NCBI GenBank assembly: GCA_963722305.1
Contig: CAVRKE010000002.1
Span: 522,678 to 586,677, forward strand
Length of the DNA: 64,000 bases
Reading direction: 5' to 3'
From: Candidatus Levyibacteriota bacterium
GTDB taxonomy: Bacteria > Patescibacteriota > Microgenomatia > Levybacterales > UBA12049
The notes beneath the pieces were generated by a model. It was not told the DNA's origin and did not search any database. It saw only the letters and a program-made list of their open reading frames with translations. Below are positions 24 to 40,234 of the stretch, piece by piece. Every line of letters starts with the position of its first letter. The first letter of the stretch is position 1. A program made the position numbers and the translations under genes.

Positions 24-428
24 TTAAGGGGTTGAAAGATTAACGTTGGGGATATTTAAATTGGAAAGGGTGCCGATATTGAAGAATTGGAGGAGGAGGT
101 TAATGATAAAATAAGCCAAAAAGATCACCACTAAGCCGATGATAGCGGCAATAATATGCTCTCTGGCTTCGGCAACTTTGCTTTTGTCTCCGGTCGAGAT
201 TAGCCACCTAAATCCGCCGTAAATTAAGTAAAAGAGAGCTGCAATAACCGCAATTACAAACACCAATTGAATGGCAGCGCCAACCACGTTGCCAAAATTA
301 TTGGTGGACAGACTACACAAAATATTGAATTGTCCCCCTCCGCAGGTGTTTACTGATCCGGCGGCAAAAGCAGATGTGGCCAAAGAAAAATATGCTACTA
401 AAGATAATGGGAGAATAAGTTTTTTCAT
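24..428 (-). CDS. VirB2/TrbC-like conjugative-type pilin (signal peptide + two-TM pilin core)
   Basis: 134 aa. N-terminal signal peptide (MKKLILPLSLVAYFSLATSAFA) is followed by two hydrophobic helices flanking a short charged loop (…LIYGGFRWLISTGDKSKVAEAREHIIAAIIGLVVIF…), the architecture of TrbC/VirB2 pilins. Paralogous to ORFs 489..839, the C-terminus of 843..2318, and 17359..17763. Confidence 0.5.
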   Translation of the reverse strand: MKKLILPLSLVAYFSLATSAFAAGSVNTCGGGQFNILCSLSTNNFGNVVGAAIQLVFVIAVIAALFYLIYGGFRWLISTGDKSKVAEAREHIIAAIIGLVVIFLAYFIINLLLQFFNIGTLSNLNIPNVNLSTP

Positions 429-488: not shown

Positions 489-839
489 TCACGGGTTATT
501 GTAGTTAAGCGGCGCTGCACCGCTACCCAACAGAAAATTGTAAATAGCATTAATAATTAAAAAGGCGAAAAAAACAACCAATAAGCCAATGATGGCCCAA
601 ACAACCTTTTGTCTGGCGCTACTGACGCGTTGTTTATCGCCTTCGGACATCAACCAATTAAACCCTCCCCAGATTAAAAAAAACAAGGAAAGAAGAATTG
701 CTCCAACTAACAAAAGGTCAAGTCCGGTGCGGACAATTGTTAACAGGGGATCCGGCCCGCCTTCGGGCATGCCGCTGACACCGTGGATTTCTAGCGGTGC
801 ACCGTTAACACCCGGCACTGTTAAAGTAAGCAATTTCAT
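489..839 (-). CDS. VirB2/TrbC-like pilin paralog
   Basis: 116 aa. Shares the core motif with the neighbouring pilin (…LIWGGFNWLMSEGDKQRVSSARQKVVWAIIGLLVVFF… vs …LIYGGFRWLISTGDKSKVAEAREHIIAAIIGLVVIF…). In tandem with the adjacent pilin genes, with a 4-bp gap to the upstream gene. Confidence 0.5.
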   Translation of the reverse strand: MKLLTLTVPGVNGAPLEIHGVSGMPEGGPDPLLTIVRTGLDLLLVGAILLSLFFLIWGGFNWLMSEGDKQRVSSARQKVVWAIIGLLVVFFAFLIINAIYNFLLGSGAAPLNYNNP

Positions 840-842
840 ATT

Positions 843-2318
843 TTACTGGGCAAAACCCGGCAGCTGTAAAATGTTCACTCCGATAATCTGCAGAATAATC
901 AGCGAAAGGATAACAAATAATAACCCGATAATCGCAGCGGTGAGCTGGTCCCTGGCGTTTTTAATATTTTCCGGATTGCCTTGGGAAACCATCATCCGGT
1001 AACCGGAGATAATGATTAAAATTACGGCAATCCCGCCGGCAATACTAAGAATTAGTCCTAAAATTGCCTGAGCGATTTGGTCCGGAGAAGTGGTAATGTC
1101 TCCAATGGCAGTATCGCAGGTAAAAGTATTATTCGGTTCCGGTGTACAGAAGGGCTGGTTTGGGGCAGGGGGAAGTCCAATGCCCTGGAGATCATTAATC
1201 GACTCACAGTAGAATTCCCCTCCGGTTGTAACCCCTCCCTGTAAGCAAACATACCCACTGCAGCATCCGCCAGTGGCCCCTGGCGCGGCATTAGGAGCAC
1301 AAGGGGATGGGTTTTGTGGGGTTCCGTCAGTATTAGTGCCACAGGTGCCTCCACCATAACAGGAATATGTTCCCCCAGTGGTTACGCCTCCCGAACTGCA
1401 AATTTGTCCGGCGCAGCATGAGCCTGCTTGAGCCAATCCCGCTGTGACAGTGGGGTTACAGCTAGACGGGGGAATAGGGGGGTTGGAAGAGGAGTTGCAG
1501 TAATTTAGCGTGCTCACACAACCATATGTAGTATTTGGGTTGGTAGATCCAGCAGTATTGGTTACTACACAACTAAAGTATGTACAACAGCCGTGATTTG
1601 ACTTATTGTCATTTGGGTTACAGGAGGTTGGATTGTGGCCGTTAATGCAGGTTGCCGCAGTATAAACGCAGGCGTAATATTCTGGTGTATTATCAGCAGG
1701 AGGATTAGGTACATGGTGATAACAGGTATAGCCGTCGCAACAGGGATTGGGAGTACAGGAAGTAATATTAGTAGGGTTGGTGCAGGCACCCGGAGCTGAT
1801 GCACTAGAATAACAGCAGGTTGTCGCGCCTGTACAATCAGAGGTTGCCACTTCGCTGCCACCATTGCAGTCGTTTGGGTCTATACAGTTGCCGCCGTAGT
1901 CTCGTTTACAGAAAAGAGGAATGCAACAACTTCCACCTCCTACAGCTGAACAATAGCCTGTAGAGCCTACCATCTGGATGTATCCTGACTGGCACGCGGA
2001 GCCAGACTGACCAGGCTGACATTCCCCGCCCATTGCGCTGCAGGTATCTTCGCAGCAATAATGGGGGTTTGCGGGGTTTGTGGGGTTTGCACAAGCAGGG
2101 TCTGAAGTAGTAGTATAACCGGTAGGGCAGACCTCTCCGCCACCTAAACCATTGGTTGTCGAACAGCTATATGCTTGGTTAGGGCCGCAAGTACCGGCAA
2201 ATACAGATTTAACAGGAGCAAGAATACTTAAGAACAAAAAGATAAAAACAGAAGTGAATAAATAAATGAATAGCCTTCGCACAAGTTTATGATAGAACAA
2301 AAACTGAATAAAATGCAA
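843..2318 (-). CDS. Secreted cysteine/threonine-rich protein with C-terminal VirB2/TrbC-like pilin domain (pilin fusion)
   Basis: 491 aa. Long N-terminal signal/TM region, then ~380 aa very rich in Cys (many CC and CxxC), Thr, Gly, Asn and Pro. The C-terminal ~80 aa (…IAVILIIISGYRMMVSQGNPENIKNARDQLTAAIIGLLFVILSLIILQIIGVNILQLPGFAQ) matches the pilin core of the neighbouring genes and of 17359..17763, which ends …NVLKIPGFSP. Confidence 0.5.
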   Translation of the reverse strand: MHFIQFLFYHKLVRRLFIYLFTSVFIFLFLSILAPVKSVFAGTCGPNQAYSCSTTNGLGGGEVCPTGYTTTSDPACANPTNPANPHYCCEDTCSAMGGECQPGQSGSACQSGYIQMVGSTGYCSAVGGGSCCIPLFCKRDYGGNCIDPNDCNGGSEVATSDCTGATTCCYSSASAPGACTNPTNITSCTPNPCCDGYTCYHHVPNPPADNTPEYYACVYTAATCINGHNPTSCNPNDNKSNHGCCTYFSCVVTNTAGSTNPNTTYGCVSTLNYCNSSSNPPIPPSSCNPTVTAGLAQAGSCCAGQICSSGGVTTGGTYSCYGGGTCGTNTDGTPQNPSPCAPNAAPGATGGCCSGYVCLQGGVTTGGEFYCESINDLQGIGLPPAPNQPFCTPEPNNTFTCDTAIGDITTSPDQIAQAILGLILSIAGGIAVILIIISGYRMMVSQGNPENIKNARDQLTAAIIGLLFVILSLIILQIIGVNILQLPGFAQ

Positions 2319-2338
2319 GCCCTCCCGTGATTGCTGAT

Positions 2339-2725
2339 TTATGATTTTGGATTAATGAATGTTTTGCTTTTTCTGATAAGCCCTTGTAAAAGTGGCCCGA
2401 CGATATTTGATTGTTCAACTAAATCTTGAAAATCTTTCTCAGCCAAGTAGTTTATGTCTTTTGCGATTAATATAAAATTTTTAAGCTCGGACAATGAACC
2501 TTTTGCCAGATAATAAAACTGGACCTTCTCTTTGTAAGTTTGTCTACCGAATCCTTCAGCAATATTTGCGGTAATTGAAGCAGCCGCTCGTCGCATCTGG
2601 TCCACAAGTGAATATGTCTCTTCTCTTGGAAAACTTTTGGTAATTTTATAGGCCAAGATTACCAGTTTATGTCCTTCTCGCCAAACATTTAAATCTGTAA
2701 ATGTTTCTATTTTCCCGTTTTTCAT
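2339..2725 (-). CDS. Four-helix-bundle protein (23S rRNA intervening-sequence protein family, TIGR02436-like)
   Basis: 128 aa. Motif LVILAYKITKSFPREETYSLVDQMRRAAASITANIAEGFGR…LAKGSLSEL is the hallmark of the '23S rRNA IVS / four helix bundle' family. Confidence 0.6.
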   Translation of the reverse strand: MKNGKIETFTDLNVWREGHKLVILAYKITKSFPREETYSLVDQMRRAAASITANIAEGFGRQTYKEKVQFYYLAKGSLSELKNFILIAKDINYLAEKDFQDLVEQSNIVGPLLQGLIRKSKTFINPKS

Positions 2726-2763
2726 AAATCTTTAATCAATAATCTGTAATCTTTAAATTCACA

Positions 2764-4131
2764 TCAGGATGTGAATTTAAACCCGCGGCCTTTGGCGGTC
2801 TGGAGATGCTGTGGAGTATTGGGGTTTTCTTCAATCTTTTTTCTGACCCGGAAAATCAACTGGTCTAAAGCCTGGTCGGTTACACCCAAGGTAGTTTTGG
2901 CTTCTTTCCAAACAGCGTTAATAATTTCCTCCTTTTCCAGCACCCGCTCTTTGTTTTCCAGCATAAATTTAAGCAGCCGGTACTCAAGCGAAGTTAATTT
3001 ATCCGAGATTAATAGCTCGCCTTTGAGGATTTCTTGGGCTTCATTGAGCGAAAAGTGCTCATCCTGTTTTGAAAGTGTTTGTTTTTCTTTAATAAAATCC
3101 GCAAACAAAGAAATGCTTAACAGACCATTTTTAATCAGCCCGACGTTTTCCAGATAACGCAGTTCTTCAGTGTCGGAAGCCAGGGGTTTGGCGCCAACGG
3201 AGAGAAAATTCTGTTCAAAGGGAGTTAAATAATTCCAAATCGCGGCCAAGGTATTGCGGATGGTTTTTTGTTCGAGTAAGAATTTTCTCAGCAGCAATTT
3301 ATTCTCAAATTGTTGCTCGGTGGCCAACAACGCCTCAACCGATAGCAGCAATAAACTACTGTGCCCACCGGTTAATTGCAAAACCTCATCCAACAGTTTT
3401 GGCTCAATTTTTTTCTCGGTGATTTTCTCTAAATAGGAAACCCGGAATTTAATCCCCACCTCATCATATATCGGTAGGTAAATCACTTTGCCCACTACAT
3501 ATTCATAAAAGTCGGATAAAAAGCTGGCTTCCAGAATATCTTCCAGCGGCCGGTTGAGGGAAAAGACCACCGAAAAGCGGTATTTAGCCCTATTCCTTAA
3601 AATTCTTAGGTTGGCAAAAAAATCGCTGTCCACCACCGAAAGGTATTCTTCAAAGCGGTCAAACAAGAAAACGATGGTCAATTCTTTTTCCAGGGCCAGA
3701 TAATCAACGGTTTTTTTTAAGCCCTGAAACAAAACCAATTCGTCTTTAAACTCCAGGCTTTCTTTAAAAATCTGGTTGGCAACGGCGTATTCTGCGTCTT
3801 TTTTCCTTTCGCGCAGCGAATCAACCAAATTTAAAAAGATAAACTTTGTCGCATCAAGCAACGGCCTTTTTTTGATTTCGGAAAAATTTAAATAAACAAA
3901 ATGAAACCAACTTTGCCGTTCTTCGCTGACGTGTTTAATCCTGACGTTGCGGTTGTAAGCCAACAGCCCCAAGAAATTGGAGCGGCCGGCCCCGGGAACG
4001 GAAACCACTTGGCAGGAGCTGCCTTCTTTAATAAAACCCAAAATTTTTTCAATTTCCGCAAAACGGGTATTTTCCGGATACAGAGCTTCGAAATGGGCAG
4101 ATTCGATGGTTGCATTATCTAGTTGTTTCAT
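2764..4131 (-). CDS. ATPase-like (degenerate Walker A) protein with C-terminal OmpR/PhoB-type winged-helix DNA-binding domain
   Basis: 455 aa. N-terminal P-loop-like VSVPGAGRSNFLGL (Arg in place of the Lys in GxxGxGK) and Walker-B-like IVFLFDRFEE. C-terminal …LTSLEYRLLKFMLENKERVLEKEEIINAVWKEAKTTLGVTDQALDQLIFRVRKKIEENPNTPQHLQTAKGRGFKF fits the trans_reg_C (OmpR) consensus. Confidence 0.5.
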   Translation of the reverse strand: MKQLDNATIESAHFEALYPENTRFAEIEKILGFIKEGSSCQVVSVPGAGRSNFLGLLAYNRNVRIKHVSEERQSWFHFVYLNFSEIKKRPLLDATKFIFLNLVDSLRERKKDAEYAVANQIFKESLEFKDELVLFQGLKKTVDYLALEKELTIVFLFDRFEEYLSVVDSDFFANLRILRNRAKYRFSVVFSLNRPLEDILEASFLSDFYEYVVGKVIYLPIYDEVGIKFRVSYLEKITEKKIEPKLLDEVLQLTGGHSSLLLLSVEALLATEQQFENKLLLRKFLLEQKTIRNTLAAIWNYLTPFEQNFLSVGAKPLASDTEELRYLENVGLIKNGLLSISLFADFIKEKQTLSKQDEHFSLNEAQEILKGELLISDKLTSLEYRLLKFMLENKERVLEKEEIINAVWKEAKTTLGVTDQALDQLIFRVRKKIEENPNTPQHLQTAKGRGFKFTS

Positions 4132-4190
4132 GATTTAAAATTTCTAATTTTTAATTCCTAATTTCTAGTCAAATCCGAATTTAACAATAA

Positions 4191-4445
4191 CTAATGTTTA
4201 TTGTTACTAGATTTAATAATAGCATTAAATATGAGATTAAGCTCTTTTGCTTCTTGCCACAAGATTCTTGCTTCCTTTTTCGTCTCCGGTAAGGTTGTGG
4301 CGATTAACTGGTTAATAAGAGAATTTGTAATTGCGTTTTGGGAAATTTTTTTGCAAAACACAATAATACTCTCCGCAAATTTAGTAGTTCTTTCTTCTAA
4401 ATCGTATTTATTTGGGTTTTCTTTTATTGGCACTTGACTAGTCAT
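4191..4445 (-). CDS. Short four-helix-bundle (23S rRNA IVS family) protein
   Basis: 84 aa. YDLEERTTKFAESIIVFCKK…NSLINQLI matches the N-terminal consensus of the four-helix-bundle family (DLEERT.FA..II.FCKKL). Shorter than usual. The overlapping + ORF 4201..4437 has no recognizable features. Confidence 0.45.
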   Translation of the reverse strand: MTSQVPIKENPNKYDLEERTTKFAESIIVFCKKISQNAITNSLINQLIATTLPETKKEARILWQEAKELNLIFNAIIKSSNNKH

Positions 4446-4543
4446 TAGAAATTAATAATTTAGGATTTGTGTAACTAAATTGTAAACTTTCTGTAAGCTT
4501 AATATCAAGCTTCTACCGCCAACTTCTTTTAAACTCCCCTCGT

Positions 4544-7500
4544 ATGGAAAACGAAAATTATGTTGTCAAGCCGGTTGAAAAACCAGTTGTGCAACAAAAA
4601 CCAAATGAATTGACAAGCAGGCCCAATTCTCCTAAGCTGAATAGAGAGGGGAATATTTTTATGGCAGATACAGTAAACGAAAGCGCACCGACAGGTAACG
4701 GACAAGGGACATCGGATGTTAAAGCAACAGCTGAATCAGGTACTGGAACCGTAACAGCTGAAGATACAGAAGCCAGTGCCAAAGAAGCAAATTCTAACCC
4801 CGCAAAAACAGCAGCCAACGCTGAAGAAGCGGCCAGAGCTAGAGATGAAGAAGCCACAGCCAGAGAGGCAGCAGCCAGAGCCAGAGAGGAAGAGGCAGCC
4901 GGTGAAGAAGACGAAAGCGGAGAAGAGCCAACAGCCAAGACAGCCGGGGAAGACGAAAATACAGCTGAAGAAGCCACCCAAGAGCAGCAGGAGTGGGCAG
5001 CAGAAGCATGGACTTATTTAAATTTGTTAGGTGAGGAAGAAATTAGCGAAGATGACTTACAGGCGCAGCAAAAGAAAATAAGTAAAGGGATTGGTCCTAA
5101 CGGGAAAAAAATGACAATGGATGTTATCGCTAACACCGAATTGGAGGACGAAGAGCGCATCCGGGCAGTGGAAGTAATGCTGCAGCGCGAGAGCAATCCT
5201 TTTAGCGAAGAACAAAAAAAACTGCTGATTGCCGCACACGAAGTCGGCGCAAACGAACCAGGGCGTCTTCCCAACACCATGGCAGGCGCTTATAACTATA
5301 CACAGGAACAGTTAGGAAAGAAAATAAAAAAATTAAAAGAGGCGGGAATAGAGAGCGCAGGAGACCGCCGAAAATTAATCGAAAGCGGTCTGATGGGAAA
5401 GGGATTTAACATCGGTAAAACGGGCATTAATGATGCAGTTATTCTAAACGAAATTAATACGATAGAGTTAATGGTTAATATAGCTATCAGTCAAGAAGCA
5501 AAGATTGAACGGTTACGTGAAGCCATGGCAAGGCTGTCAAGCATGCCGCCTTCGGCAGATAAAGATATTGCCCTAAAAAGGACTAAATTTCATTTGATTA
5601 AAGAATCAATAATGGGTAAAGAAGCTGCCGAGGAGTCAAGACGAAAAGAACCAAAAATATGGGATGGGACACAGGGTTATCAATGGCCCGAAACATATTA
5701 CGAGAATCAATACAATAATCCTGACCGTAAGCTCCACGACAGTCTTCAGGATAACTTTAATAAGATGTTTGATAAGCTTTCGCCTCAGCATGGTGTTGAT
5801 GCAGGCTTAGTCGATTTTATTGTTAACCTGCCTGATTCAAAATTACTTTTTTCGCTTGTCAATAAAATCGCCGCTTTACCTTTGGAAACGGAAATTGCCG
5901 ATTATGAAATCAGTTTCTACGCCAATGCGGTTTTAGATAATATCAAGGAATCTTTATCCAAATCTGCTGCCGGTCCTTCCGTTGAGAGGAGAGAAAGGCA
6001 AACTAAGGTGAATAATCTCTTGGAAGCATACCGACATCTACACCAGATGAATAAATACATCGCCACCGATAATGCCGACCATTTTGCAGATGGGTCAGGC
6101 TCTATTCTGCCGGAGCATCTCCAGGCTTTGCTGGATGTTAAAGGTGTTGATGTGCTGATGAATTTATATGACTCGGGCTACATGAGTTTAATAACAGGAA
6201 CAGATAAATGTGTAACTGTTGCCAATGAAGAAAGGTTACTCGGTAAAGAACTGGAAGGCAGCGAGCTAAAACAGGCGGTTAACAATCTGGGCCGGGTAAG
6301 GTCTATCGGTTCAATCGAGGATCAAATACGCCATTTGGTTGATTTGGCAAGAACCAACCCTTTTCTTTCGGAATTACAAGGTATGACCGATGAGGAAATC
6401 CGTCACGCCATTGGTTGCGCCAGGGTTTTATATAATGATTCTTTACGGTCGGTGGAGGTAGTTTCCTTGGGTGAATGGCGAAAAGGTGCCGAACTTCGGT
6501 CGCCGCCTAAGGAACGCGCTGCCAGACTTTGGTCTCTTGGCTGGGAATGGAAAAGGTTTGAATCGGGCAAAGCCACCGGAGGAATGTGGGTATTAGACCG
6601 TATGCTGACGCACCACCAGGGACTGCGTGTCAAACAGGGTTGGGGGAAAACTTCGATTACCAGATTATCCGGAGGCAAAGATCTTAGAGACTTTGAACTT
6701 AATGGCTTACTCAACGGGGCGAGCATTTTTGCCACCTGGAGGACAGAGGGTACAATTATTGAGCAGGCACCAATAGTCATAGATGGTGAATTAACCACGC
6801 TTAGTAGATACATTCAAGCAGAAAAGGCAAAGAACGAGGAGCCTACTAATCCCCATAAGCTTAAGCCGGATGAGCTTTTAAGACACATCTTCTTGGTTGG
6901 TAACCAGTTAAAACCGGAATTCACCAACGCTTATGGAGTATTGTTAAAATTAGACGATGTTCTTCCTAAAGAACTCGATTCAAAAGAGCTAAAAGATGCT
7001 AAAAAAGCTGTCAGAACCGCCATCCTTAAACGAATGGCCGAGGAAACGCCGATGGCTTTGGCATTTTTAACGGCGGGGATGGATTTTGATTCCCAAAAAG
7101 GAAAAGTTCCGGCATTCCATAGAGATTCTCAGGGAAGACAGCTCACGCTAGATGATTTTCGAGATTTTGCCAAAACACTTAACCCTGACACAAATGAAAC
7201 TTACAGGGATTTATTACTAAAATTAATCACTACCAATGAAATACGCTTGGCCAGCATCAAAAACAACACAGTAGATTTGGGGCGTCAAGCAAAAGGGGTG
7301 TTGGGTCCGTCTTCGCCAATCTTAAACTTGAACGATATTATTTTTGATCCAAGTAGTGGTGGTGCAAAACAGGATTTTCAAGTAGAACTTAGTGGTGCTG
7401 AAAAAGAGCTCTTAGATCAAATTCAAGCTTATGGTAATGACGTGGCAGAGGAGTTGGCTGAGGTCCGTTTTCCCTATAACCCGGTAATGAATGACGTAGT

Positions 7501-8146
7501 CTGGGGAACAGTTGATTTTCGAAAAGCTGGAGCAATTTATTTTAGCCGTCAAGTCGGCGATGATGTCGCCAGGTTTCAGACGGAAAAAAAACTCGAGGCT
7601 GTTAATCGCGAACCGACCATGGAGCCAAAAAATGCCATTGAGGCGATACATGAGGGGGCAAAAATTCTGGACGGGCCAAACGGCAGGGACAAAGTTCAAG
7701 ATGAGTTCTTGCCTTTGATTATGGCCTTGGCTGATTTTTACCGGGCAGGAGGACAACTGGGTGATGGACCACTGGCCACTTTAATGAGGTGGGGACTGCA
7801 TAATACTTGGTATGCGAAGGAATTAGCGAACATACTGAATACTTCTAATTCGGTTGCTCAGGAGTATGGTGGAGCAAAGGCCCCGTGTCTTGATCAGTTG
7901 GCGATGAACGACTGGTTCAATGACGTCTTGGTAGCCGAGCTTACCAGAAGAAGTATTAAATCAAAATTATCGGATGGTACAGTCTATAACTTTGCCGACA
8001 TTGACGGCTGGTTGAGGAGAAAATACGGACTGTCCTTTTTTGGATTACCGCTTTGGCTAATAGTGGTATTACAGAATCTGTTCCCAATAGCGCTGGGCGG
8101 CGGTGTGATTGTGGCCGGGAGAAAGGCCACCGGAGAACAGAAGTAA
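4544..8146 (+). CDS. Giant hypothetical protein (1200 aa): Ala/Glu-rich low-complexity N-terminus, C-terminal transmembrane anchor
   Basis: Longest ORF in the window. The N-terminal ~150 aa are an acidic Ala/Glu/Thr-rich low-complexity region. The C-terminus …LSFFGLPLWLIVVLQNLFPIALGGGVIVAG is hydrophobic (tail anchor). No P-loop or other catalytic motif recognised. Confidence 0.45.
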   Translation: MENENYVVKPVEKPVVQQKPNELTSRPNSPKLNREGNIFMADTVNESAPTGNGQGTSDVKATAESGTGTVTAEDTEASAKEANSNPAKTAANAEEAARARDEEATAREAAARAREEEAAGEEDESGEEPTAKTAGEDENTAEEATQEQQEWAAEAWTYLNLLGEEEISEDDLQAQQKKISKGIGPNGKKMTMDVIANTELEDEERIRAVEVMLQRESNPFSEEQKKLLIAAHEVGANEPGRLPNTMAGAYNYTQEQLGKKIKKLKEAGIESAGDRRKLIESGLMGKGFNIGKTGINDAVILNEINTIELMVNIAISQEAKIERLREAMARLSSMPPSADKDIALKRTKFHLIKESIMGKEAAEESRRKEPKIWDGTQGYQWPETYYENQYNNPDRKLHDSLQDNFNKMFDKLSPQHGVDAGLVDFIVNLPDSKLLFSLVNKIAALPLETEIADYEISFYANAVLDNIKESLSKSAAGPSVERRERQTKVNNLLEAYRHLHQMNKYIATDNADHFADGSGSILPEHLQALLDVKGVDVLMNLYDSGYMSLITGTDKCVTVANEERLLGKELEGSELKQAVNNLGRVRSIGSIEDQIRHLVDLARTNPFLSELQGMTDEEIRHAIGCARVLYNDSLRSVEVVSLGEWRKGAELRSPPKERAARLWSLGWEWKRFESGKATGGMWVLDRMLTHHQGLRVKQGWGKTSITRLSGGKDLRDFELNGLLNGASIFATWRTEGTIIEQAPIVIDGELTTLSRYIQAEKAKNEEPTNPHKLKPDELLRHIFLVGNQLKPEFTNAYGVLLKLDDVLPKELDSKELKDAKKAVRTAILKRMAEETPMALAFLTAGMDFDSQKGKVPAFHRDSQGRQLTLDDFRDFAKTLNPDTNETYRDLLLKLITTNEIRLASIKNNTVDLGRQAKGVLGPSSPILNLNDIIFDPSSGGAKQDFQVELSGAEKELLDQIQAYGNDVAEELAEVRFPYNPVMNDVVWGTVDFRKAGAIYFSRQVGDDVARFQTEKKLEAVNREPTMEPKNAIEAIHEGAKILDGPNGRDKVQDEFLPLIMALADFYRAGGQLGDGPLATLMRWGLHNTWYAKELANILNTSNSVAQEYGGAKAPCLDQLAMNDWFNDVLVAELTRRSIKSKLSDGTVYNFADIDGWLRRKYGLSFFGLPLWLIVVLQNLFPIALGGGVIVAGRKATGEQK

Positions 8147-8175: not shown

Positions 8176-9816
8176 CTATACTCCAAACCACCCTCTGACA
8201 GCACCGCCGATTCCAGGGCGCTGTCCTTGGGTAGGAGTTTTCATAAAGCTTCTGGCTGCGCTTTGGGCGCCTCCGCGGACCACCGCTGTGCCTCCGCTAA
8301 CGGCCGTGGCTACTCCGCCCAGACTAATCCCCGGAGCTTTGAGGGCTTTTCGAACAACCACAATTGCTTGCGGAGTGGTAAAAATAATCCCAAGTCCGAT
8401 GATTGCGCCGATGATATTCGGGGTGGCGATTGAGCCAATCAGTGGCGGAACAAACGGATTAGTTTGTGCCGTCCCAAACTTATCCATAAAGACAGCCCCC
8501 AAGAGAAACATCCCAATAGTGACGGGAAATGCGGACAGGTTGGCGACAAGGTCTCTTATCCACGGGCCAAAACCAAGCTGGTTATTGCTGGCCGGAATCA
8601 GGCCCAAGGCAATCCAAAAAGGCGCAAAGACAATGTCGATTAAAATAAAAATGTAAGCGGAAATCAGGGTAATCCACAGCCTAAGGAGCATCACAATAAT
8701 TGCCGCCCCGAGAATTAAGAGAGTTAAACTTTTTGTAATTACCCAGGCAATCTGGGAGGCCAAAACTGCACCGACAACTGCGCCAACTAAGGCGCCAATT
8801 ATGGGACCAATAATCGGGACTGCTTCACCAACGTCAGTAAAAAATCCTGCTACCTTACCGGCAAGCACTGCCCCGACAATGGTCCCTAACATTCCAAAAA
8901 TCGCACTTCCGGCGGGGTTGTTAAAAACTGAGGCAGCCAGGTTTGCGACTGTATCGCTGGTAGTTCCGGCAACTCCCCCCAACCCCCCGACATTGGCCAT
9001 GTTAGTGGCTTGGTTTAAGGCATCAAACGGGTTCAGTGCCGAAGGAACGGCCGTAATAGCGTTTTGTATTGTCGGGTCGGCGGAGCCGATTAAGTTGGTG
9101 ATCAGATAAACCGTTACATACATTAGATCAATTAAAAATCCGGCAATGGCAAAGGACAAAGTGACTAAAATAATGCCGATAATTATTTTGGGTATCTGGT
9201 TTTGGATCGTCATGACGGTGCGGGGGTCAATGCGTACCCGCAGCATAATAGCCACGCCGATGAGTAAGAAAATGGCCACAAATAAAATATAGATGCTGTT
9301 ACGAAAAGCAACCCACAGGCTCATGATCGGTGAGAGTTGATTAAAGCCGTTACCCGGTCCGGCGGCATAGGATTTTTGCCCAAAACCAAAACTTTTTGAG
9401 AGATACGCATAGTATTCGGCCGGCTCAGCCGGAGGGGTATATAAAGAAGCGATGCCAAAAGTCATTAGCCCTATTACTCCGCCCCCGTTTTCGACAAAAC
9501 CAATTCTGCCGGATTTGGGATCAACCCCTAAACACTTTTGTTCCGGATCGGTGGGATTGGAACCAAACATTTGGCAAAGCATGGCGTTGGAGGCTTCAAG
9601 CATCATGCTTTGCGCATAAGTGTTCATGTTTTTGGGAACATCAGGATTAGTATTCGGGGTTAAATATTGATTTGCTTGCGTTTGGACATTACTGGTAGTT
9701 TGAGCATGGGCAACAGGCAGGAAAAGGCAAAAGGCAACCAGGAAAATAAAGATTACCGAGAACAGTCGGACCGCTCTTCGCGTAAAGCTTCGTAACGGCA
9801 AGGCAGTAAGTTGCAT
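8176..9816 (-). CDS. VirB6/TrbL-like polytopic membrane protein (putative)
   Basis: 546 aa. Signal peptide, a ~150-aa extracytoplasmic domain, then ≥6 TM helices and a Gly/Ala-rich C-terminal tail. Shares motifs with ORF 14928..17354 (…WVAFRNSIYILFVAIFLL…LSFAIAGFL… vs …WVAVRNITYAMFVLLILI…FSFAIARFL…). The topology resembles TrbL/VirB6. Confidence 0.4.
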   Translation of the reverse strand: MQLTALPLRSFTRRAVRLFSVIFIFLVAFCLFLPVAHAQTTSNVQTQANQYLTPNTNPDVPKNMNTYAQSMMLEASNAMLCQMFGSNPTDPEQKCLGVDPKSGRIGFVENGGGVIGLMTFGIASLYTPPAEPAEYYAYLSKSFGFGQKSYAAGPGNGFNQLSPIMSLWVAFRNSIYILFVAIFLLIGVAIMLRVRIDPRTVMTIQNQIPKIIIGIILVTLSFAIAGFLIDLMYVTVYLITNLIGSADPTIQNAITAVPSALNPFDALNQATNMANVGGLGGVAGTTSDTVANLAASVFNNPAGSAIFGMLGTIVGAVLAGKVAGFFTDVGEAVPIIGPIIGALVGAVVGAVLASQIAWVITKSLTLLILGAAIIVMLLRLWITLISAYIFILIDIVFAPFWIALGLIPASNNQLGFGPWIRDLVANLSAFPVTIGMFLLGAVFMDKFGTAQTNPFVPPLIGSIATPNIIGAIIGLGIIFTTPQAIVVVRKALKAPGISLGGVATAVSGGTAVVRGGAQSAARSFMKTPTQGQRPGIGGAVRGWFGV

Positions 9817-9952: not shown

Positions 9953-10097
9953 CAATAAGATTAAAAATATGTAATATTCTTGTAATGTTTATGTCAAGCT
10001 AATTATTGAAACTCAGGCTACAATACTGCCTGTAAAAAAGAGAGATTGGTTTGACAAATTATTTAAAACTAATCTAGACTGGAAAGAGAGGATATTT

Positions 10098-12408: not shown

Positions 12409-14775
12409 CTATTTGGCTGCAGCAATACTGATTGGAGATGGAATATTTGAGGATGGTTGAGCGGTTGACGTGGCAGGCGGTACAGACGGAGTCGGTTGGA
12501 TAACTCCGACTGTTTGACCATTCTGTTGAGCGGTTGTCGTTGGAACAGATTGCGGTGTGGCTAATTTTTGAAAAGTATACACTTCTTTTGTTTGGTCGAA
12601 ACCCACCACAATCGTCTCTCCGGCAACAAACTGCTTCTGTATCAGTAGTGTGGCGATCGGGTTTTCAATCACGGACTGAATAAGTCTTCGCAAGGGGCGT
12701 GCCCCATATATCGGGTCATAACCTTCCTTCGCCAGCTGCTCAAGCGCCTTCGGGTCAATAGTGAACATTACTTGTTGGTCAATCAAAAGCTTGGCGGTTT
12801 TTTGTAACTGGAGTTTGGCAATTTCCAGCATATGTTTTTGCCCGAGAGGATCAAACATAATCACATCGTCAAACCTGTTTAAGAGTTCGGGTTTGAAAAA
12901 TTTATGCAGTTCGTTTTCAACCAACGCTTTGACTTTTTTCAACTCCTCAGAAGAAACTTCATTTTTATTTTGCAATTCTTGTTGAATAAGGCTGCTGCCG
13001 ATGTTTGAGGTAGCGACGATAATCGTATTTTTAAAAGAAATCACATTACCTTTATTATCGGTTAGCCTTCCGTCTTCCAAAATTTGCAGTAAAATGTTAA
13101 AAACGTCCGCATGGGCTTTTTCCACTTCATCAAAAAGCACCACCGAATACGGTTTAATTCTGACCGCCTCGGTTAGTTGACCTCCTTCTTCATAGCCGAC
13201 ATATCCGGGAGGCGCACCAATCAGCTTAGCCACTTCGTGTTTTTCCATATATTCGCTCATGTCAAGTCGTATCATTGCCTCTTCTTTGCCAAAGAGAACT
13301 TCCGCCAGCGTTTTGGCAAGTTCGGTCTTTCCAACGCCGGTGGGACCTAAGAAGATAAATGAGGCAATCGGTCTAGTTACATTTGTCAAACCGATTCTGC
13401 CGCGGCGTACCGCCTCAGCAATGGCTTTGACGGCAACCTCTTGATTAATCAGGCGCTTATGAATTAAATCTTCCAGATGCAGTAATTTCTCGCTTTCGTC
13501 TTCGTTAAGTTTGGTAATCGGGATATTAGTCCATTTGCTAATCACCAACTCGATGTCTTGGCGGGTCACCTGGTTGGAGGTGCGCTTTCCGGACTCCGTA
13601 GAAAGCCGTACGTCTGCCGCTGCTTCATCCAGTACGTCAACCGCTTTGTCGGGCAGGTAACGGTCGCCTATATATCGTTTGGAAAGTTTTACCGCCGCCT
13701 CAATTGTCTCATCGGTGAAGACAACTTTATGAAACTCTTCGTACTTTGATTTTAGAACATTAATCATTTTTACCGCGCTTTCTTCCGGCGGTTCTTCGAC
13801 CAATACAGTCTGGAATCTTCGCTCAAAGGCCTTATCCTTTTCAATATATCTTCGGTATTCGCTAATGGTCGTACTGCCGATAATCTGCAGTTGTCCGCGC
13901 GCAATAAAAGGTTTAATAATGTTTGAGGCGTCCAACGAGCCCTCTGTTTGGCCGGCACCGATGAGCGTCTGAATTTCGTCAACAAAGAGGATGATTTTCC
14001 CTTCGGAGAGTTGCACTTCTTTGATTACCTTTCTTAATCTTTCTTCGAATTCCCCCCGGTGAGATGCCCCCGCCACCAGCGAGGCGATATCTATTTGGAT
14101 AATCCGTTTACCGATCAGTTCATGTGGGACTTTACCCTCAATAATCAGCTGAGCCAACCCTTCAACAATGGCGGTTTTTCCAACACCGGCGTTTCCGATT
14201 ATCACCGGATTATTTTTTATTCTGCGTAAAAGTATGTGTATGGTCCGGTCGATTTCATTAGTTCTTTCGGCTACCGGGTCAAGCTTGCCTTCTTCGGCTA
14301 ACTTGGTGATGTCTGTTCCGAATTCAAGCAGCACGGATTTATTACCAAAGTTATATTTGGTGGAGTTTGCCAACTTTTCCTGAACTTTTTCTTTTTGTAT
14401 TCCTTCTGTTGCCAGGATAGCGGACGCGTTAATGTCGGCCGACATAACAGCCATCAAGATATCTTCCGGCATCACAAAATCCATTTTCCTGTCTTTGGCC
14501 AAAATAAAGGCTTGTTCTAAAAGTCTCTTGGTGTCCTCACCAAGGCTTGGTTGGCCATCATATGTTCCAACTTGTTCCTTCGACTGAATTTCTCTGGCAA
14601 TATCCCCGGCTTTTAGCGAGAATTGTTCAATTAATTGAAAAATTTCCTGATCGTATAAAAGGCCTAAAAGCAGTTGTTCCGGTTGAATTGTCGGTTGTTT
14701 CATGCGTATGCTTTCTTTCTCCGCGGCCGCCAATATCTGAAGTGAGCGCTGGTCCAAATGCGTTAAGACGGTCAT
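12409..14775 (-). CDS. clpC: ClpC/ClpB-family AAA+ chaperone ATPase (two Clp_N repeats, two AAA+ modules)
   Basis: Two Walker A motifs ([15 protein letters not shown] and [15 protein letters not shown]). Clp_N repeats ([16 protein letters not shown]…; …[15 protein letters not shown]…). The ORF track extends to 14931 (840 aa), but the Clp_N domain starts at the internal Met (MTVLTHLDQ…), giving ~789 aa. Confidence 0.7.
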
Positions 14776-14927
14776 GTCCTCTTTGGTAGTAGGGGAAACA
14801 ACGGCAGTAGCTGCCGGAATAGTTGGAGCTTGGACGGAAACATTATCCGTTTGCTGGTTAACCGGTTCTGTTTGTGAAAAAAGATTATCTAACATAATTA
14901 TATTATGCGCAGAAATTGTCAAAGCCG

Positions 14928-17354
14928 TCAATTAATTTTGGTTTTATCATTCTCATCAGCTTCAACCTCTTCGCTTAGTTCCTTGGCCTGTGCTTTTTTT
15001 GCCCCCTTTTCAACCAAAGTTTCTTCACTTTCTTCTTTCTTTGCCAATTCCTGCAGGGCCGATTTTCCCGCCGCAAGCTTGGCCTTAAGATAAGCAATAA
15101 CTTCTGTCTGCGAAAAGCCCCCGATTAAAAGGAAGGGAAGAATGTTGGAGACCGAAGAAAGGCCTTCCCGAACTTTGACCGGATCGGGCGAAGAGAGTAA
15201 AGTAATTGCTTCCGAAACGGTAGTTCCGTCATCTTCAATCCAGGATTTCCTGTCGGGATATTTATCGGGAGGGATATCAATTTGCAAATAATTTTCCAGC
15301 CATAAATCCTTTACGGCTTCATAGTCATCAAAGCCCACTGTTTGTATTTGGTTAACGGTAGGAAGACTAACAGTAGGAGTTACCTGCGGTGCGCCCGAAG
15401 CGGTTGCTTCTGCGGTTTTTGCCGCTTCCGGCTTTTTAACGGTATTTGCGGCAGAAAGAATAGATTTTGCCAAGACATCTCCTTTGGTTGTTTCGTCGGT
15501 AAGTTTTTCACGCAAGTTTGTGTAATATTGTTTTTCGGCAGAGGTAGTATTTACCTGCGGGTTGGCAATTTTCGCAAGAGCCTCCGTTGTTTGTTGTAAC
15601 TGTTGAGTTCCCTCCTGAGTGCGTTTTAACCTGGCACTTTCAAACTTGACAATATCACGCATGGTCGGTATAGGGAAGCTGATTAAAGTTGTTGTCGGCC
15701 TGGTCAAAATTTCGGGTTTAAATCTGGCGATCATTTCTGTTCGGTTGGTGGTCATTTTAGTCTGGCGGTTGTTTACGGTTGAAGTAGAGATATTATTTTG
15801 TTGAATCTGATTAACTGTTTGGTTTTGTGTTTGGTTTTGTTGGGTCGTACTGGCAAATTGCGTATGCGACGTTTGTCCAGCCTGTTGCCCGGTTTCTTGT
15901 TGCGTTGGAATGTTTATTGTCGCCCGTCTTAGATTAAGCTCTTTTTGTATTACGCTTTGCTGTTTTTGTTGAATCTGATTAACTGTTTGGTTTTGTGTTT
16001 GGTTTTGTTGGGTCGTACTGGCAAATTGCGTATGCGACGTTTGCCCAGCCTGTTGCCCGGTTTCTTGTTGCGTTGGAATGTTTATTGTCGCCCGTCTTAG
16101 ATTAAGCTCTTTTTGTATTACGCTTTGCTGTTTCGGTATCTTAAGAGCTTCTCCGGCTGGGAATTGTCCAACCGGAAGAGGACCAGGTGATTGGGGTTTT
16201 TTTAAGAATGCCAAACCATTATTGATAAGGTTATTTTGAATGTTATTTATATATGGAGGCGCGTGGTTTTTCCCGAAATCGTAATTTGAGAGAAACTCCA
16301 AGAGTATTTGCAAGAGAATAAAAGGCATAAGAATTGCTACCCATAACATCAGTAAAGCAACGATAAATTGCGTAAATGTTTCATTGTTGTTAAGACTGTT
16401 GGTAAGGCTTAGTGTCTGACCGGGTCCTCCTACTAGAATGCTGATGGCGGTCGGATAAGTAAGTCCGACCGGGTTTGCAAAATTAAAAGGCAGGACAAGA
16501 ATATTGCTTTTCCAAATAATAACGATTGCCGATAAAAACAAGGAAAAAAGCGGAGCATATAATAACCACCTCAAAAACTCATTCCTGATTATTTTCACTG
16601 TACTTCTGGTCGGGAAATAGAAGATGATAATCGGCAAAAGCGGAGAGGCAACGAGAAAAAACCACAAAATAATTTTTCTAACCATGAGAATAAAACCGAT
16701 AACATAAAAAGTCACCGAACTCAGCTTGATAAGAAGAAGAGAAATAAATGCGGGCTCGTCGAAAGTTGCCCCAAATCTCCTAAAGCCGGAAAAGTTCTCA
16801 TAGGAAAAGCCGATGTTGACGACATCTTTAGCGGTAATAACACCGTTACCGGATACATTAAAGAAAAATGCCTGAAAGATGTCTGCTATTTGATATAAAA
16901 ATCTGGCAATAGCAAAAGAAAAGGTAGCAAGTAGTAATACAATAATAAATTTTTTGACAAAAACAAGAACTCCTACATTACTGCCGCCGCTTATTATAAT
17001 TAAAAAAGCGGCAATTAGAATAAGCAAAACGAACATTGCATAGGTGATATTTCTAACCGCAACCCAGACATTTATTAGCGGAGCATCCAGGTAATCCCAT
17101 TTATAATTAGTAAGCATCCAATCCATAAAATTTGCCGATCTAGATGCTGTTTCTCCTAAGAAAGTTACCGTTGGATCCTGGACCCAATCTCCGGAAGCAA
17201 GGGGAGCTACCATTGGAGTCGGCGTTGGAGTCGGAACAGCCTGAGCAAAGGCAGTCGGAGCGGACAAAGTAAAGAAGGAAAGCAAAGACCGTTCTTTATA
17301 AAAGGGGAGAATAAAAAGTAGTCCTAGGATACCGATAAAAAAAATACGTTTCAT
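14928..17354 (-). CDS. VirB6/TrbL-like polytopic membrane protein paralog with Gln/Thr/Asn-rich tandem-repeat tail
   Basis: 808 aa. Signal peptide, PTPTPTP linker, extracytoplasmic domain, ≥6 TM helices sharing motifs with ORF 8176..9816, then a long hydrophilic tail containing two near-identical 56-aa repeats (KQQSVIQKELNLRRATINIPTQQETGQQAGQTSHTQFASTTQQNQTQNQTVNQIQQ). Confidence 0.4.
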   Translation of the reverse strand: MKRIFFIGILGLLFILPFYKERSLLSFFTLSAPTAFAQAVPTPTPTPMVAPLASGDWVQDPTVTFLGETASRSANFMDWMLTNYKWDYLDAPLINVWVAVRNITYAMFVLLILIAAFLIIISGGSNVGVLVFVKKFIIVLLLATFSFAIARFLYQIADIFQAFFFNVSGNGVITAKDVVNIGFSYENFSGFRRFGATFDEPAFISLLLIKLSSVTFYVIGFILMVRKIILWFFLVASPLLPIIIFYFPTRSTVKIIRNEFLRWLLYAPLFSLFLSAIVIIWKSNILVLPFNFANPVGLTYPTAISILVGGPGQTLSLTNSLNNNETFTQFIVALLMLWVAILMPFILLQILLEFLSNYDFGKNHAPPYINNIQNNLINNGLAFLKKPQSPGPLPVGQFPAGEALKIPKQQSVIQKELNLRRATINIPTQQETGQQAGQTSHTQFASTTQQNQTQNQTVNQIQQKQQSVIQKELNLRRATINIPTQQETGQQAGQTSHTQFASTTQQNQTQNQTVNQIQQNNISTSTVNNRQTKMTTNRTEMIARFKPEILTRPTTTLISFPIPTMRDIVKFESARLKRTQEGTQQLQQTTEALAKIANPQVNTTSAEKQYYTNLREKLTDETTKGDVLAKSILSAANTVKKPEAAKTAEATASGAPQVTPTVSLPTVNQIQTVGFDDYEAVKDLWLENYLQIDIPPDKYPDRKSWIEDDGTTVSEAITLLSSPDPVKVREGLSSVSNILPFLLIGGFSQTEVIAYLKAKLAAGKSALQELAKKEESEETLVEKGAKKAQAKELSEEVEADENDKTKIN
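15795..16135. repeat. Two-copy ~168-bp near-perfect in-frame tandem duplication inside CDS 14928..17354
   Basis: The sequence ttgttgaatctgattaactgtttggttttgtgtttggttttgttgggtcgtactggcaaattgcgtatgcgacgtttg… is repeated head-to-tail (copies begin near 15798 and 15967), with a single visible mismatch (gtttgtcc vs gtttgccc). Confidence 0.8.
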
Positions 17355-18016: not shown

Positions 18017-18964
18017 TCATCCAGGTATATAAGGTGTCTGCCTTTTTAAAACTGCATATACTCTATTGAGCAGTTTTCTTGATACCGCAATGGTTGCTTC
18101 TTTGTACCTCTTTCCCTCAGCTCTCTTCTTCTCGTAATACGCCTTAAGTTTCTTATCATGCCGTTGTGCAATAGAAGCTCCTGTATAGAGCATCTGTCTA
18201 AGGTAAGGAGAGCCTCTTTTAGTTAAATGGGTATTATGGTGTAATCTTCCTCCTGATTGTTTGACCTTTGGATCCAATCCCGCATAAGCAACGAGGGCTT
18301 TATCTGATTTGAACTGATTAATATCTCCGATTTCCGCAAGAAGTACCGTTGCTATTGTTTCTCCCACTCCCGGTATAGAGCAAAGCAGTTTAACAAGTTT
18401 TGAATCAACCTCTTCTTCTGCTTTCTTCCTAAATGCTTTGATTGACTGTTCTATGGTATCAATACAGACCTGCAACTCCTCAAAAGAAGCTGTATCATCC
18501 GGATCTACCTCTTGTACGTGCTGTTGTATTAGTAAAAGACGCTGTTTCATGTGTGTTAGCTTTATGGCGGTTCTCTCATGGGTTTTGGCAATGTGAAAAG
18601 TTTGGGTACTTATCAGCCTTCCTTCTCCGGCAAGAGCCAGCTTAGCAATGGTTAATGCGTCTTGAGGGTCAGTTTTTCTCTTTCGAACAGTTGCTTTGGT
18701 ATATTGCTTAGTCACAATGGGATTTAATAACCTCAATGGTATTTTAGAAGAAAGAGCCAAAAGTGCAAGTACCCTGTGGTATTCGGTAGTTGCCTCACAA
18801 GAGAGCAGCATCTTTTTGTACGGAAGAGCATTTAACCACTTATCGATACTTTCCTTGTTATTCTTAACGGTAAATGAATGCTTTATTCGTATTGATTTAT
18901 CAATTGCCACAGCAACAAGGGTGTCTTTTGAGACATCTACGCCTACAACTATCATTTTCATCAC
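18017..18964 (-). CDS. IS110-family transposase (DEDD-type)
   Basis: 315 aa. N-terminal MIVVGVDVSKDTLVAVAID is the characteristic IS110/IS116/IS902 start. C-terminal region (…LCSIPGVGETIATVLLAEIGDINQFKSDKALVAYAGLDPKVKQSGG…) matches the Transposase_20 domain. Confidence 0.7.
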   Translation of the reverse strand: MMKMIVVGVDVSKDTLVAVAIDKSIRIKHSFTVKNNKESIDKWLNALPYKKMLLSCEATTEYHRVLALLALSSKIPLRLLNPIVTKQYTKATVRKRKTDPQDALTIAKLALAGEGRLISTQTFHIAKTHERTAIKLTHMKQRLLLIQQHVQEVDPDDTASFEELQVCIDTIEQSIKAFRKKAEEEVDSKLVKLLCSIPGVGETIATVLLAEIGDINQFKSDKALVAYAGLDPKVKQSGGRLHHNTHLTKRGSPYLRQMLYTGASIAQRHDKKLKAYYEKKRAEGKRYKEATIAVSRKLLNRVYAVLKRQTPYIPG

Positions 18965-29719: not shown

Positions 29720-29809
29720 TTGATTATAACAGTTGCAGCCTCAATTTGTAAGAATTCTGTAAAGTTAAAATGAAGCTAAATAAACCTAATTGGTTTACAA
29801 TTTTGCCAT

Positions 29810-39795: not shown

Positions 39796-39828
39796 AAAAA
39801 ACCCCGAACATTATGTCAGGGTTTTTTG
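39796..39828. terminator. Putative bidirectional terminator hairpin between CDS 38505..39788 and the tmRNA 3' end
   Basis: aaaaaaccccgaacattatgtcagggttttttgt: a GC stem (aaccc/gggtt) flanked by an A-run and a T-run. Confidence 0.35.
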
Positions 39829-40234
39829 TGGAGATGTCGAGCAATGAACTCGAGTCCAAGATAACATTATAAAAATTTCTACAAGCTTATCCGATTTTTA
39901 AGAGTCGCTTTATCCTTTTCCAGTCGGAAGGAATAAATAAAGTCAAGATTATAAATTCGATAAGGAACTAATCAGCCTCCTTATTATTTCCTAGGCTAAG
40001 TTTATGCCCTAAAAGTTCCACCTAGGAGAGAACTTAAAGGACACCTTCAATCGGCTTTAAGCAGCAAGTGCCAAAGCGGGTTGAGAGAGTCTAATGGACG
40101 GAAGCATTGCTGCTACCTTATCCATCAGACTTGAAATGCTAGTTTTAGCATTTATATTTGACTTGTTTTACGGCATTAAGTCATTGCCGGCTTGCAGTTT
40201 TTAAAGTGCGTTCTTGTCGATGCAATGCATCCCC
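39829..40234 (-). ncRNA. ssrA: tmRNA (ssrA)
   Basis: On the minus strand: 5' end GGGGAUGCAUUGCAUCGACAAGAACG… (cf. canonical GGGG.UG.AUUC.G.AUUCGACGGGA); tag reading frame ending …GCU UUG GCA CUU GCU GCU UAA (= …ALALAA*) at ~40057–40095; 3' tRNA-like end with T-arm UCGAG-UUCAUUG-CUCGA and acceptor strand CAUCUCC pairing with 5' GGGGAUG, including a G3·U wobble, plus discriminator A. Immediately downstream of smpB on the same strand. Confidence 0.65.

Follow-up and report, generated by a model that had tools for sequence, protein, structure and literature searches.

A probable non-hydrolysing, oligomerising controller of the type IV secretion pilin locus in Levybacteria: an NTPase-derived module joined to an OmpR-type winged helix

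What controls the pilin genes of the Levybacteria type IV secretion system (T4SS)? The T4SS and its pilin arrays are widespread in Patescibacteria (Candidate Phyla Radiation, CPR), and cultivated Saccharimonadia cannot grow epibiotically without them (as cited in PMC12102498). A 2025 survey of the T4SS of Patescibacteria describes the pilin arrays and mentions no transcription factor, and no description of a regulator of the CPR T4SS was found in literature searches. We analysed a stretch of 64,000 nucleotides from a Candidatus Levyibacteriota bacterium (contig CAVRKE010000002.1, positions 522,678 to 586,677), below called the window. Here an open reading frame (ORF) for a 455-residue protein, the regulator, is found at the head of three pilin genes (Table 1). 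The regulator is probably a non-hydrolysing, oligomerising controller of this locus. With moderate confidence, we consider it a dedicated transcription factor of the Levybacteria T4SS-pilin locus acting by the mechanism proposed below.

The genes are real, and more than 1,100 homologues of the regulator were found. With its tRNA, tmRNA and ClpB genes, and with homologues that bear the name Candidatus Levyibacteriota, the window is a piece of chromosome from a Levybacteria-like member of the CPR. The C-terminal OmpR/PhoB winged helix recognised in the initial annotation is borne out by Pfam: Trans_reg_C (PF00486) matches residues 378-453 with 64.8 bits (E 7.8e-18, cut-off 26.2). A profile of the relatives matches the DNA-binding domains of RegX3, WalR and PhoB at E ~1e-21. 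In the AlphaFold model this part is formed by strands at 360-376, helices at 381-392, 400-408 and 419-433, and strands at 443-446 and 450-453, which fits the N-terminal beta-sheet, three helices and beta-hairpin wing of the OmpR-type fold. No receiver domain (Response_reg) was found in the regulator by Pfam, its N-terminus being an NTPase-like fold, and the response-regulator models of NCBIfam cover only the C-terminal 80-130 residues, far below their cut-offs. The protein is a member of the OmpR winged-helix family by its C-terminal domain only, and is not a response regulator.

The location directly at the head of a pilin operon, also proposed initially, is confirmed, as all three downstream ORFs match the T4SS_pilin model (PF18895) above its cut-off of 26.6 bits. 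Comparison with the 91%-identical locus L005 suggests that the true start of the first pilin may be the second TTG, near 2300. We compared ten loci obtained by exact-protein look-up and 80 species loci from GTDB genomes. Pilin genes are adjacent to the regulator in 69 of the 70 loci with adequate flanks. They are co-directional and downstream, as in the window, in 42 loci, divergent and upstream in 27, and absent in one; the flanks of ten further loci were too short to be scored. An orthologue of only 39% identity (L009) keeps the adjacency. No pilins were observed beside the more distant Lys-type and Ile-type relatives described below, at one inspected locus of each. The orthologous loci run on past the pilins with PrgI, TraC-like and VirB4-like genes; for the window's own locus, the other T4SS genes would be located past its left edge. 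The gap between the regulator and the pilins is 12-20 bp in loci without insertions, and no terminator-like site was found between the genes of the regulator-pilin operon. The recognition helix GVTDQALDQLIFRLRKKIE is essentially invariant across both gene orders, which is consistent with one conserved target sequence.

The NTPase-derived module and its Walker motifs

AlphaFold modelled the full-length regulator at pLDDT 82, and residues 1-356, with a diverse alignment, at pLDDT 91.8 and pTM 0.90. Both models contain a P-loop core with five strands, a lid made of helices and a segment resembling a winged helix. The best Foldseek matches of the N-terminal domain are ORC4, Orc1 and Cdc6 (E ~2e-5), with TM-scores of just 0.37-0.45. 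Further matches are the archaeal ATPases PAB2304 (TM-score 0.52) and SSO1545, as well as BrxC, MuB, RFC and MalT (8bob_C). Orc4, the top match, and some other subunits are initiator paralogues with degenerate catalytic sites. When the N-terminal profile was searched against the sequences of the PDB, no solved ORC/Cdc6 protein was matched; the single marginal match was the P-loop of an ABC transporter (E 0.086).

A profile of the N-terminal domain only was then compared with 1.84 billion cluster representatives (50% identity clusters), yielding 820 proteins at E<=1e-3. A C-terminal Trans_reg_C is present in 97 of the 98 full-length relatives from this search, so that this arrangement, initially held to be uncommon in an NTPase, is the rule in the family. 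The same 98 proteins are matched by the NTPase models AAA_16 (52), nSTAND1 (40), AAA_35 (18) and NACHT (11), and only two are touched by the ORC-CDC6-like model. The domain scan suggested in the initial annotation did find Trans_reg_C, but detected neither AAA_16 nor NB-ARC on the regulator; AAA_16 was seen on Lys-bearing distant relatives only. Judging from these profiles, an NTPase followed by an OmpR winged helix is a large unstudied family and not a rare architecture; literature searches for nSTAND1 with Trans_reg_C, or STAND with OmpR, found no description of it. The regulator itself would belong to the STAND class by descent, not by a direct match to a hidden Markov model (HMM).

Two further motifs can be aligned with those of the relatives. 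VVFSLNR194 corresponds to VVATRR and FTR, and TGGH257-S to TGGHPGL of the Lys-type relatives, with the Pro lost in the regulator. These would be the sensor-1 Arg (hhhT/SxR) and GxP-type motifs of STAND proteins, reportedly defined by Leipe et al. in 2004. No TPR, WD40 or LRR sensor repeats were matched by Pfam in the regulator, and the OmpR domain follows the NTPase module directly.

Since the best structural matches are ORC/Cdc6 initiators, the regulator might instead be an ORC- or DnaA-like protein associated with the origin or the chromosome, adjacent to the T4SS genes because both lie near the replication origin. The T4SS clusters of Microgenomatia are indeed near dnaA/dnaN (PMC12102498), and in locus L001 dnaN is ~7 kb from the regulator. 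However, the adjacency is specific to the pilins and survives both inversion of the regulator and divergence to 39% identity. Its DNA-binding domain is one typical of OmpR/PhoB transcription factors, the candidate motifs (see below) are embedded in promoters at three genes of the locus and do not form an origin-like cluster, and the sequence profiles point to STAND families, not to Cdc6 or DnaA. A role at the origin thus seems highly improbable.

The Walker A motif of the regulator reads S-V-P-G-A-G-R50-S51, with Arg at the position of the invariant Lys, and so departs from GxxxxGK[ST]. That GAGRS occupies the true Walker A position follows from its alignment to the GxGKS of the relatives and to the ABC-transporter P-loop. 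The initial description of a P-loop-derived domain with this replacement is therefore upheld by the models, by Foldseek and by the Lys-bearing relatives. It had missed that the catalytic Glu of Walker B is replaced by Arg as well: the motif reads V-F-L-F-D158-R159-F-E-E, with the Asp kept and Arg in place of the acidic residue next to it. P46, G47, G49, R50 and S51 are invariant in 24 orthologues of 59-91% identity, and these residues together with D158 and R159 in a set of 25 orthologues.

We further checked, as had been proposed, whether homologues retain the Lys of the P-loop. Among the best 150 relatives listed, 124 could be aligned at this column, where K was seen 73 times, R 29 times and I 20 times, with a single Q and a single L. 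Over the 80 species loci the residue is R in 66, K in six and Q in two. Arg follows the Walker B Asp in 78 of these 80 loci, but the scan used a peptide pattern containing DRF, and this invariance is partly by construction. The profile search, free of this bias, likewise placed R after the Asp in the close clade. The residue was E or Q in the distant Lys-type relatives (~20-25% identity; Chloroflexi and others), which combine GxGKS with a DE or DQ Walker B. The regulator descends from such Lys-bearing nSTAND1/AAA_16-type relatives, and the pairing of a Walker A Arg with D-R in Walker B, in place of D-E, marks the orthologues from Levybacteria.

CPR bacteria are also the source of a third clade of the family (P0180, P0193, P0196, P0275, others; L010), which has Ile at the position of the Walker A Lys (RVGIS) and lacks the Walker B Asp (F-x-R-F-D-R). 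The one inspected locus of this type adjoins cell-division and restriction-modification genes, not pilins.

One possibility is that the N-terminal domain has remained a working ATPase switch, with Arg substituting for the Walker A Lys and hydrolysis cycling the protein between DNA-binding states, as in the MalT-type STAND regulators. Indeed, the P-loop glycines, S51 at the Mg-ligand position, Asp158, R194 and GGH257 are all conserved, and acidic residues are present at positions +3 and +4 of Walker B (FEE), similar to the NB-ARC-type motif hhhhDDxxD/E. On the other hand, the Walker B Arg is a constant feature of the close clade, and R, K and Q are all accepted at the Walker A position across species, so that catalysis cannot be essential. 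Engineered K-to-R mutants of Walker A elsewhere, such as RecA K72R, typically bind ATP and hardly hydrolyse it. We regard an active switch as unlikely, and hydrolysis is probably not part of the mechanism. In a non-hydrolysing controller, the module would be either still nucleotide-bound or locked in one state, as suggested by the continued conservation of G47, G49, S51, D158, R194 and H257. It would then be a natural STAND-type example with both catalytic residues replaced by Arg and the rest of the pocket kept, bearing on how NTPase switches turn into static scaffolds.

Promoters and a candidate operator

The sigma-70-type promoter of the regulator-pilin operon, TTGATA-18-TACAAT, is one of the two best promoter-like sites in the region 2200-4700, and is conserved as GCTTGATAtttnCCTTACAAAAAAATTACAAT in ~25 orthologous loci. 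In loci without insertions GCTTGATAtttnCCTTACAAAAAAATTACAAT is found 6-10 nt before the regulator ATG; thus the regulator mRNA would be leaderless or nearly so. Three TTACA direct repeats overlap the spacer, the -10 box and the +1 position of this promoter. OmpR/PhoB domains bind direct repeats at ~11-bp spacing, head to tail, and for this reason the TTACA repeats are proposed as a candidate operator.

Four copies of TTACA-N6-TTACA are present in the window (expected number 0.19): two in the regulator promoter, one upstream of a gene for a membrane protein, and one upstream of a P-type ATPase gene. The composite promoter/operator motif GCTTGAyA-N6-TTACA-N6-TTACA is also observed upstream of the membrane-protein orthologue in L005, L006, L042 and L081. 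Among the five strong promoters of the window only those of the regulator and the membrane protein carry it. In 91 loci and the window the composite motif has 40 matches, all at three positions of the pilin locus: the regulator promoter, the region upstream of the membrane-protein gene, and the region between the regulator stop and the divergent large gene. The latter position is used in the inverted gene order (12 of 23 such loci, and L009). The position of the motif relative to the large gene is kept in both orders, even with the regulator inverted.

The fourth repeat of the window (29747-29762, minus strand) lies ~30-45 bp upstream of the P-type ATPase gene (27923-29719) and overlaps a -35-like TTACAA. 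Its layout is unlike that of the locus motif, and it may be a chance occurrence or an outlying target.

We propose that the NTPase-derived module, fused to the OmpR/PhoB domain with neither a receiver domain nor sensor repeats, would oligomerise the regulator, so that several winged helices could bind the phased direct repeats head to tail. Binding would most likely auto-repress the regulator-pilin operon, as the repeats overlap the spacer, -10 and +1, and coordinate two further genes, the divergent large one and that for the membrane protein. The regulator is the best candidate yet for a controller of the machine that CPR bacteria may use to live on other cells. Its link to the pilin array in ~70 species of Levybacteria, together with the promoter motif, provides a handle on T4SS switching.

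Several observations weigh against this reading. No NTPase or STAND-class HMM of Pfam (E<=0.1) or NCBIfam matches the regulator itself. Gln is present at the Walker A position in two species, a sign that even nucleotide binding may be dispensable, and the retention of binding in the regulator is pure conjecture. As the TTACA repeats overlap the -10 box (TACAAT), their conservation is partly that of a promoter, not of an operator. The TTACA motif was not found in the back-to-back pilin and regulator promoters of inverted-order loci, nor near the PrgI and VirB4 genes, and thus direct control of the pilin promoters in inverted-order genomes is hypothetical. Finally, repression and activation cannot be told apart from sequence, and the role of the regulator as a whole is deduced computationally.

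In the inverted-order loci the divergent pilin gene has TTGCTT-17-TACGCT-6-ATG, and it and the regulator appear to be expressed from back-to-back leaderless mRNAs (upstream of the regulator in L012-L091, for example L018 5956-5994 and L062 4300-4341). The full promoter-like motif of this order (-35, TTACA repeats, -10), on the minus strand, faces into the regulator gene at its 3' end (L070 7448-7475; L071 7503-7530; L022 and L064 7757-7784). It could yield an antisense transcript into the pilins, a possible convergent-transcription switch. In L022 the motif directly drives a gene of the four-helix-bundle (4HB) family.

Four-helix-bundle genes and other features of the window

According to the initial annotation, the regulator is flanked by two genes of the 4HB family of 23S rRNA intervening sequences, the trio possibly regulating the pilin operon; all three ORFs are indeed found at the expected positions on the minus strand. 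The domain scan recovered 23S_rRNA_IVP on the 128-aa ORF, which is a bona fide member: PF05635 matches aa 11-114 with 124.1 bits (cut-off 33.8), and TIGR02436 matches with 114.6 bits (cut-off 24). No HMM of Pfam or NCBIfam matches the 84-aa ORF. It is similar to a PF05635 protein of 122 aa that takes this position in L006 (BLASTP E 2e-9), and the alignment reveals an in-frame internal deletion of 43 residues, in which helices 2-3 are gone and helices 1 and 4 align. This second ORF is thus a deletion remnant, not a functional 4HB member. No 4HB copies besides these two were found in the window.

Both 4HB genes are missing from locus L005, and from its DNA the two insertion points can be placed. 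The upstream one is between -10/+1 and the ancestral ATG of the regulator, which has become ATC (Ile10) in the window; the new ATG is nine codons upstream, within inserted DNA. The downstream one, defined by L005 and L047, lies after the regulator stop and before the conserved CTTGCATTTT that stands in front of the pilin gene. At its 3' end (window 2300-2338) the downstream cassette provides, close before the pilin gene, a Shine-Dalgarno-like GGGAGG that loci without the insertion lack. No obvious target-site duplications or terminal inverted repeats were seen at either cassette junction on comparison with L005 by eye.

A census of the 80 loci (890 kb) gave 48 4HB ORFs. Of these, 34 are within 250 bp of the regulator, including two stop-to-stop ORFs overlapping its end, and 30 of the 32 non-overlapping copies are on its strand. 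Ten more are among the pilin genes and six are elsewhere. This enrichment, not noticed initially, has a binomial P of 4e-35, which ignores the relatedness of the loci. An adjacent copy is present in 26-28 of the 80 species, and copies on both sides of the regulator in six (L019, L026, L029, L045, L047, L050). There are two 4HB subfamilies with no BLAST-detectable similarity to each other.

The enrichment, the common strand, the recurrent sandwich arrangement and the restriction of the two copies of the window to the flanks of the regulator could all be explained if the three genes formed a functional module, selected for co-expression, with the 4HB proteins as co-regulators or partners of the NTPase domain. 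However, ~52-54 of the 80 species, about two thirds, have no adjacent 4HB gene, among them the 91%-identical L005; what is conserved in synteny is the pair of regulator and pilins, and not the trio. The 4HB genes vary in position (upstream, downstream, between pilins), in subtype and occasionally in strand. The 4HB protein of L047 is 73% identical to that of the window, compared with just 54% for the regulators, and hence the distribution of the 4HB genes is not vertical. In-frame deletion remnants exist in the window and in L050, and no 4HB gene adjoins the relatives of the regulator inspected elsewhere. A functional trio is therefore doubtful, and we would give it little weight. Repeated insertion and decay of co-oriented, promoter-less cassettes fits the pattern better.

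In the mechanism that we prefer for the regulator, the 4HB genes would stand outside, as cassette insertions riding on the transcription of the operon, one of them already decayed. Members of the family have been described as insertions within highly transcribed rRNA genes, CPR bacteria included, and the cassette pattern echoes this residence (PMC11270868). A more specific possibility, put forward tentatively, is that the 4HB genes move as cassettes lacking a promoter, homing again and again into slots of one specific, highly expressed operon that are transcribed but non-coding, and bringing with them a downstream translation-start region for the host gene. The slots would be the leader of the regulator gene, itself leaderless, the junction of regulator and pilins, and the spaces separating one pilin gene from the next. 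If so, this would be a protein-operon counterpart of residence in rRNA genes, and the regulator-pilin locus of Levybacteria a natural system for studying the movement and role of 4HB genes. The insertion hot spot is one of few systematic clues to the biology of this uncharacterised family, and the value of the finding is in its link to the CPR T4SS and in this hot spot.

At their 3' ends, immediately ahead of the regulator ATG, upstream cassettes have short tandem repeats of degenerate sequence, such as CTAGTNG x6, TTTGTAATTT-like repeats and TTTTGA-like runs. They were observed in L028, L030, L036 (~5950-6003), L025, L031, L045, L006 (~7940-8000 in L006), L033, L050 and the window (4132-4190). 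Behind such cassettes, the regulator frequently begins with an extra MKQ(L/F)xN peptide, encoded by the inserted DNA. Deletion derivatives of 4HB genes seem to recur: in L050 (7405-7626), downstream of the regulator, a 72-aa deleted gene has helix 1 joined to helices 3-4.

The family member Avd is an accessory protein of diversity-generating retroelements (PMC10053308). A retroelement reading of the 4HB genes was rejected. No reverse-transcriptase-like ORF is present, as no YxDD motif was found in window ORFs of at least 200 aa, and the Avd models remain below their cut-offs on the 128-aa protein (bAvd 34.7 bits, cut-off 40; DivGenRetAVD 30.2 bits, cut-off 80).

Neither the 1200-aa nor the 546-aa neighbour could be assigned to a family by Pfam or NCBIfam. 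The former has a Glu/Ala-rich N-terminus and a hydrophobic C-terminal segment. The latter might be a divergent VirB6, which is offered as a suggestion only; in the 2025 survey VirB6 seems to be missing in Microgenomatia. No known RNA families were found in the intergenic regions within 1-12 kb. Elsewhere the window contains genes for a ClpB-type chaperone (12409-14931, minus strand) and an IS110-family transposase (18017-18964, minus strand), a tmRNA gene (39826-40234, minus strand) and five tRNA genes, four of them tRNA-Ser.

Table 1. Features of the regulator-pilin locus (nucleotide positions in the window; aa, residues of the regulator)
Feature	Position	Strand	Description
Regulator gene	2764..4131	(-)	455 aa; Pfam Trans_reg_C, AlphaFold models, Foldseek, orthologue alignment, motif census
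N-terminal AAA+/STAND-like NTPase-derived module	~aa 12-355		core, lid and winged helix
Walker A	aa 47-51		GAGRS
Walker B	aa 156-162		LFDRFEE
Sensor-1-like residue	R194
GGH	aa 255-257
C-terminal OmpR/PhoB winged helix	~aa 357-455
Full-length 4HB gene	2339..2725	(-)	128 aa; 23S_rRNA_IVP/TIGR02436; between regulator stop and first pilin gene
Remnant of a second 4HB gene	4191..4445	(-)	84 aa; different subtype; in leader between promoter and regulator
First pilin gene	843..2318	(-)	491 aa as listed; PF18895 aa 410-479, 44.2 bits, E 2.1e-11
Second T4SS pilin gene	489..839	(-)	116 aa; PF18895 31.1 bits, E 2.5e-7
Third T4SS pilin gene	24..428	(-)	134 aa; PF18895 44.7 bits, E 1.4e-11
Divergent large protein	4544..8146	(+)	1200 aa; fast-evolving; large gene at the same position in all loci inspected
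Membrane protein	8176..9816	(-)	546 aa; polytopic; tblastn 30-45% identity in nearly all loci
Sigma-70-type promoter of the regulator-pilin operon	4479..4508	(-)	TTGATA-18-TACAAT; 10/12 matches
Candidate operator, three TTACA direct repeats	4470..4496	(-)	4496-4492, 4485-4481, 4474-4470; 11-bp phasing
Second composite promoter/operator motif	9968..9999	(-)	GCTTGACA-N6-TTACA-N6-TTACA; 154 bp upstream of membrane-protein gene

Comparison with known systems

The 128-aa neighbour of the regulator is a full member of the 23S rRNA intervening-sequence/Avd family, but is situated in a protein-coding operon.

The best structural matches of the regulator, ORC/Cdc6, PAB2304 and SSO1545, have an AAA+ core, a lid and a C-terminal winged helix. 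However, ORC/Cdc6 and the archaeal ATPase_2 proteins have replication or unknown roles and no OmpR domain, and no relation to the regulator is seen at the sequence level.

With the OmpR/PhoB response regulators the protein shares a full Trans_reg_C and an expected target of direct repeats with a period of ~11 bp. Unlike them, it lacks both a receiver domain and a partner kinase. Its dimerisation or oligomerisation would have to be brought about by the NTPase-like module, not by phosphorylation.

AfsR and the large SARPs of actinomycetes also combine an OmpR-type winged helix and a STAND (NB-ARC) NTPase in one factor, and bind direct repeats. Their domain order is an N-terminal DNA-binding domain, BTAD, NB-ARC and TPR, whereas the order in the regulator is reversed and neither BTAD nor TPR was detected in it by Pfam.

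The MalT/LuxR-type STAND activators share with the regulator a C-terminal DNA-binding domain that comes after a STAND-type NTPase module. In MalT, nucleotide-dependent oligomerisation places several DNA-binding domains on repeated sites, and a similar oligomerisation may be expected for the regulator. MalT has a LuxR-type helix-turn-helix, a large C-terminal sensor (SUPR/TPR) and canonical Walker motifs, whereas the regulator has an OmpR-type DNA-binding domain and no sensor domain, and its catalytic Lys and Glu are replaced. From both MalT and AfsR it departs in three respects: the order of domains or the kind of DNA-binding domain, the missing sensor domain, and the two degenerate positions in its catalytic site.

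The closest proteins are the Lys-type relatives of Chloroflexi/Anaerolineae (nSTAND1/AAA_35 with Trans_reg_C, ~450 aa). They have the same length and architecture as the regulator, can be aligned with it end to end at 20-25% identity, and share the motifs NLRxLRD-KY, hhhTxR and TGGH. They differ in the canonical GxGKS, the DE or DQ Walker B, the matches to NTPase HMMs, and the one inspected locus, which is not beside pilins. They are annotated merely as 'winged helix-turn-helix transcriptional regulator', and no experimental study of them was found in literature searches. Taken together, the comparisons suggest that the regulator works like a minimal STAND-type transcription factor, and so is of a known kind, with MalT and AfsR as the nearest studied analogues.

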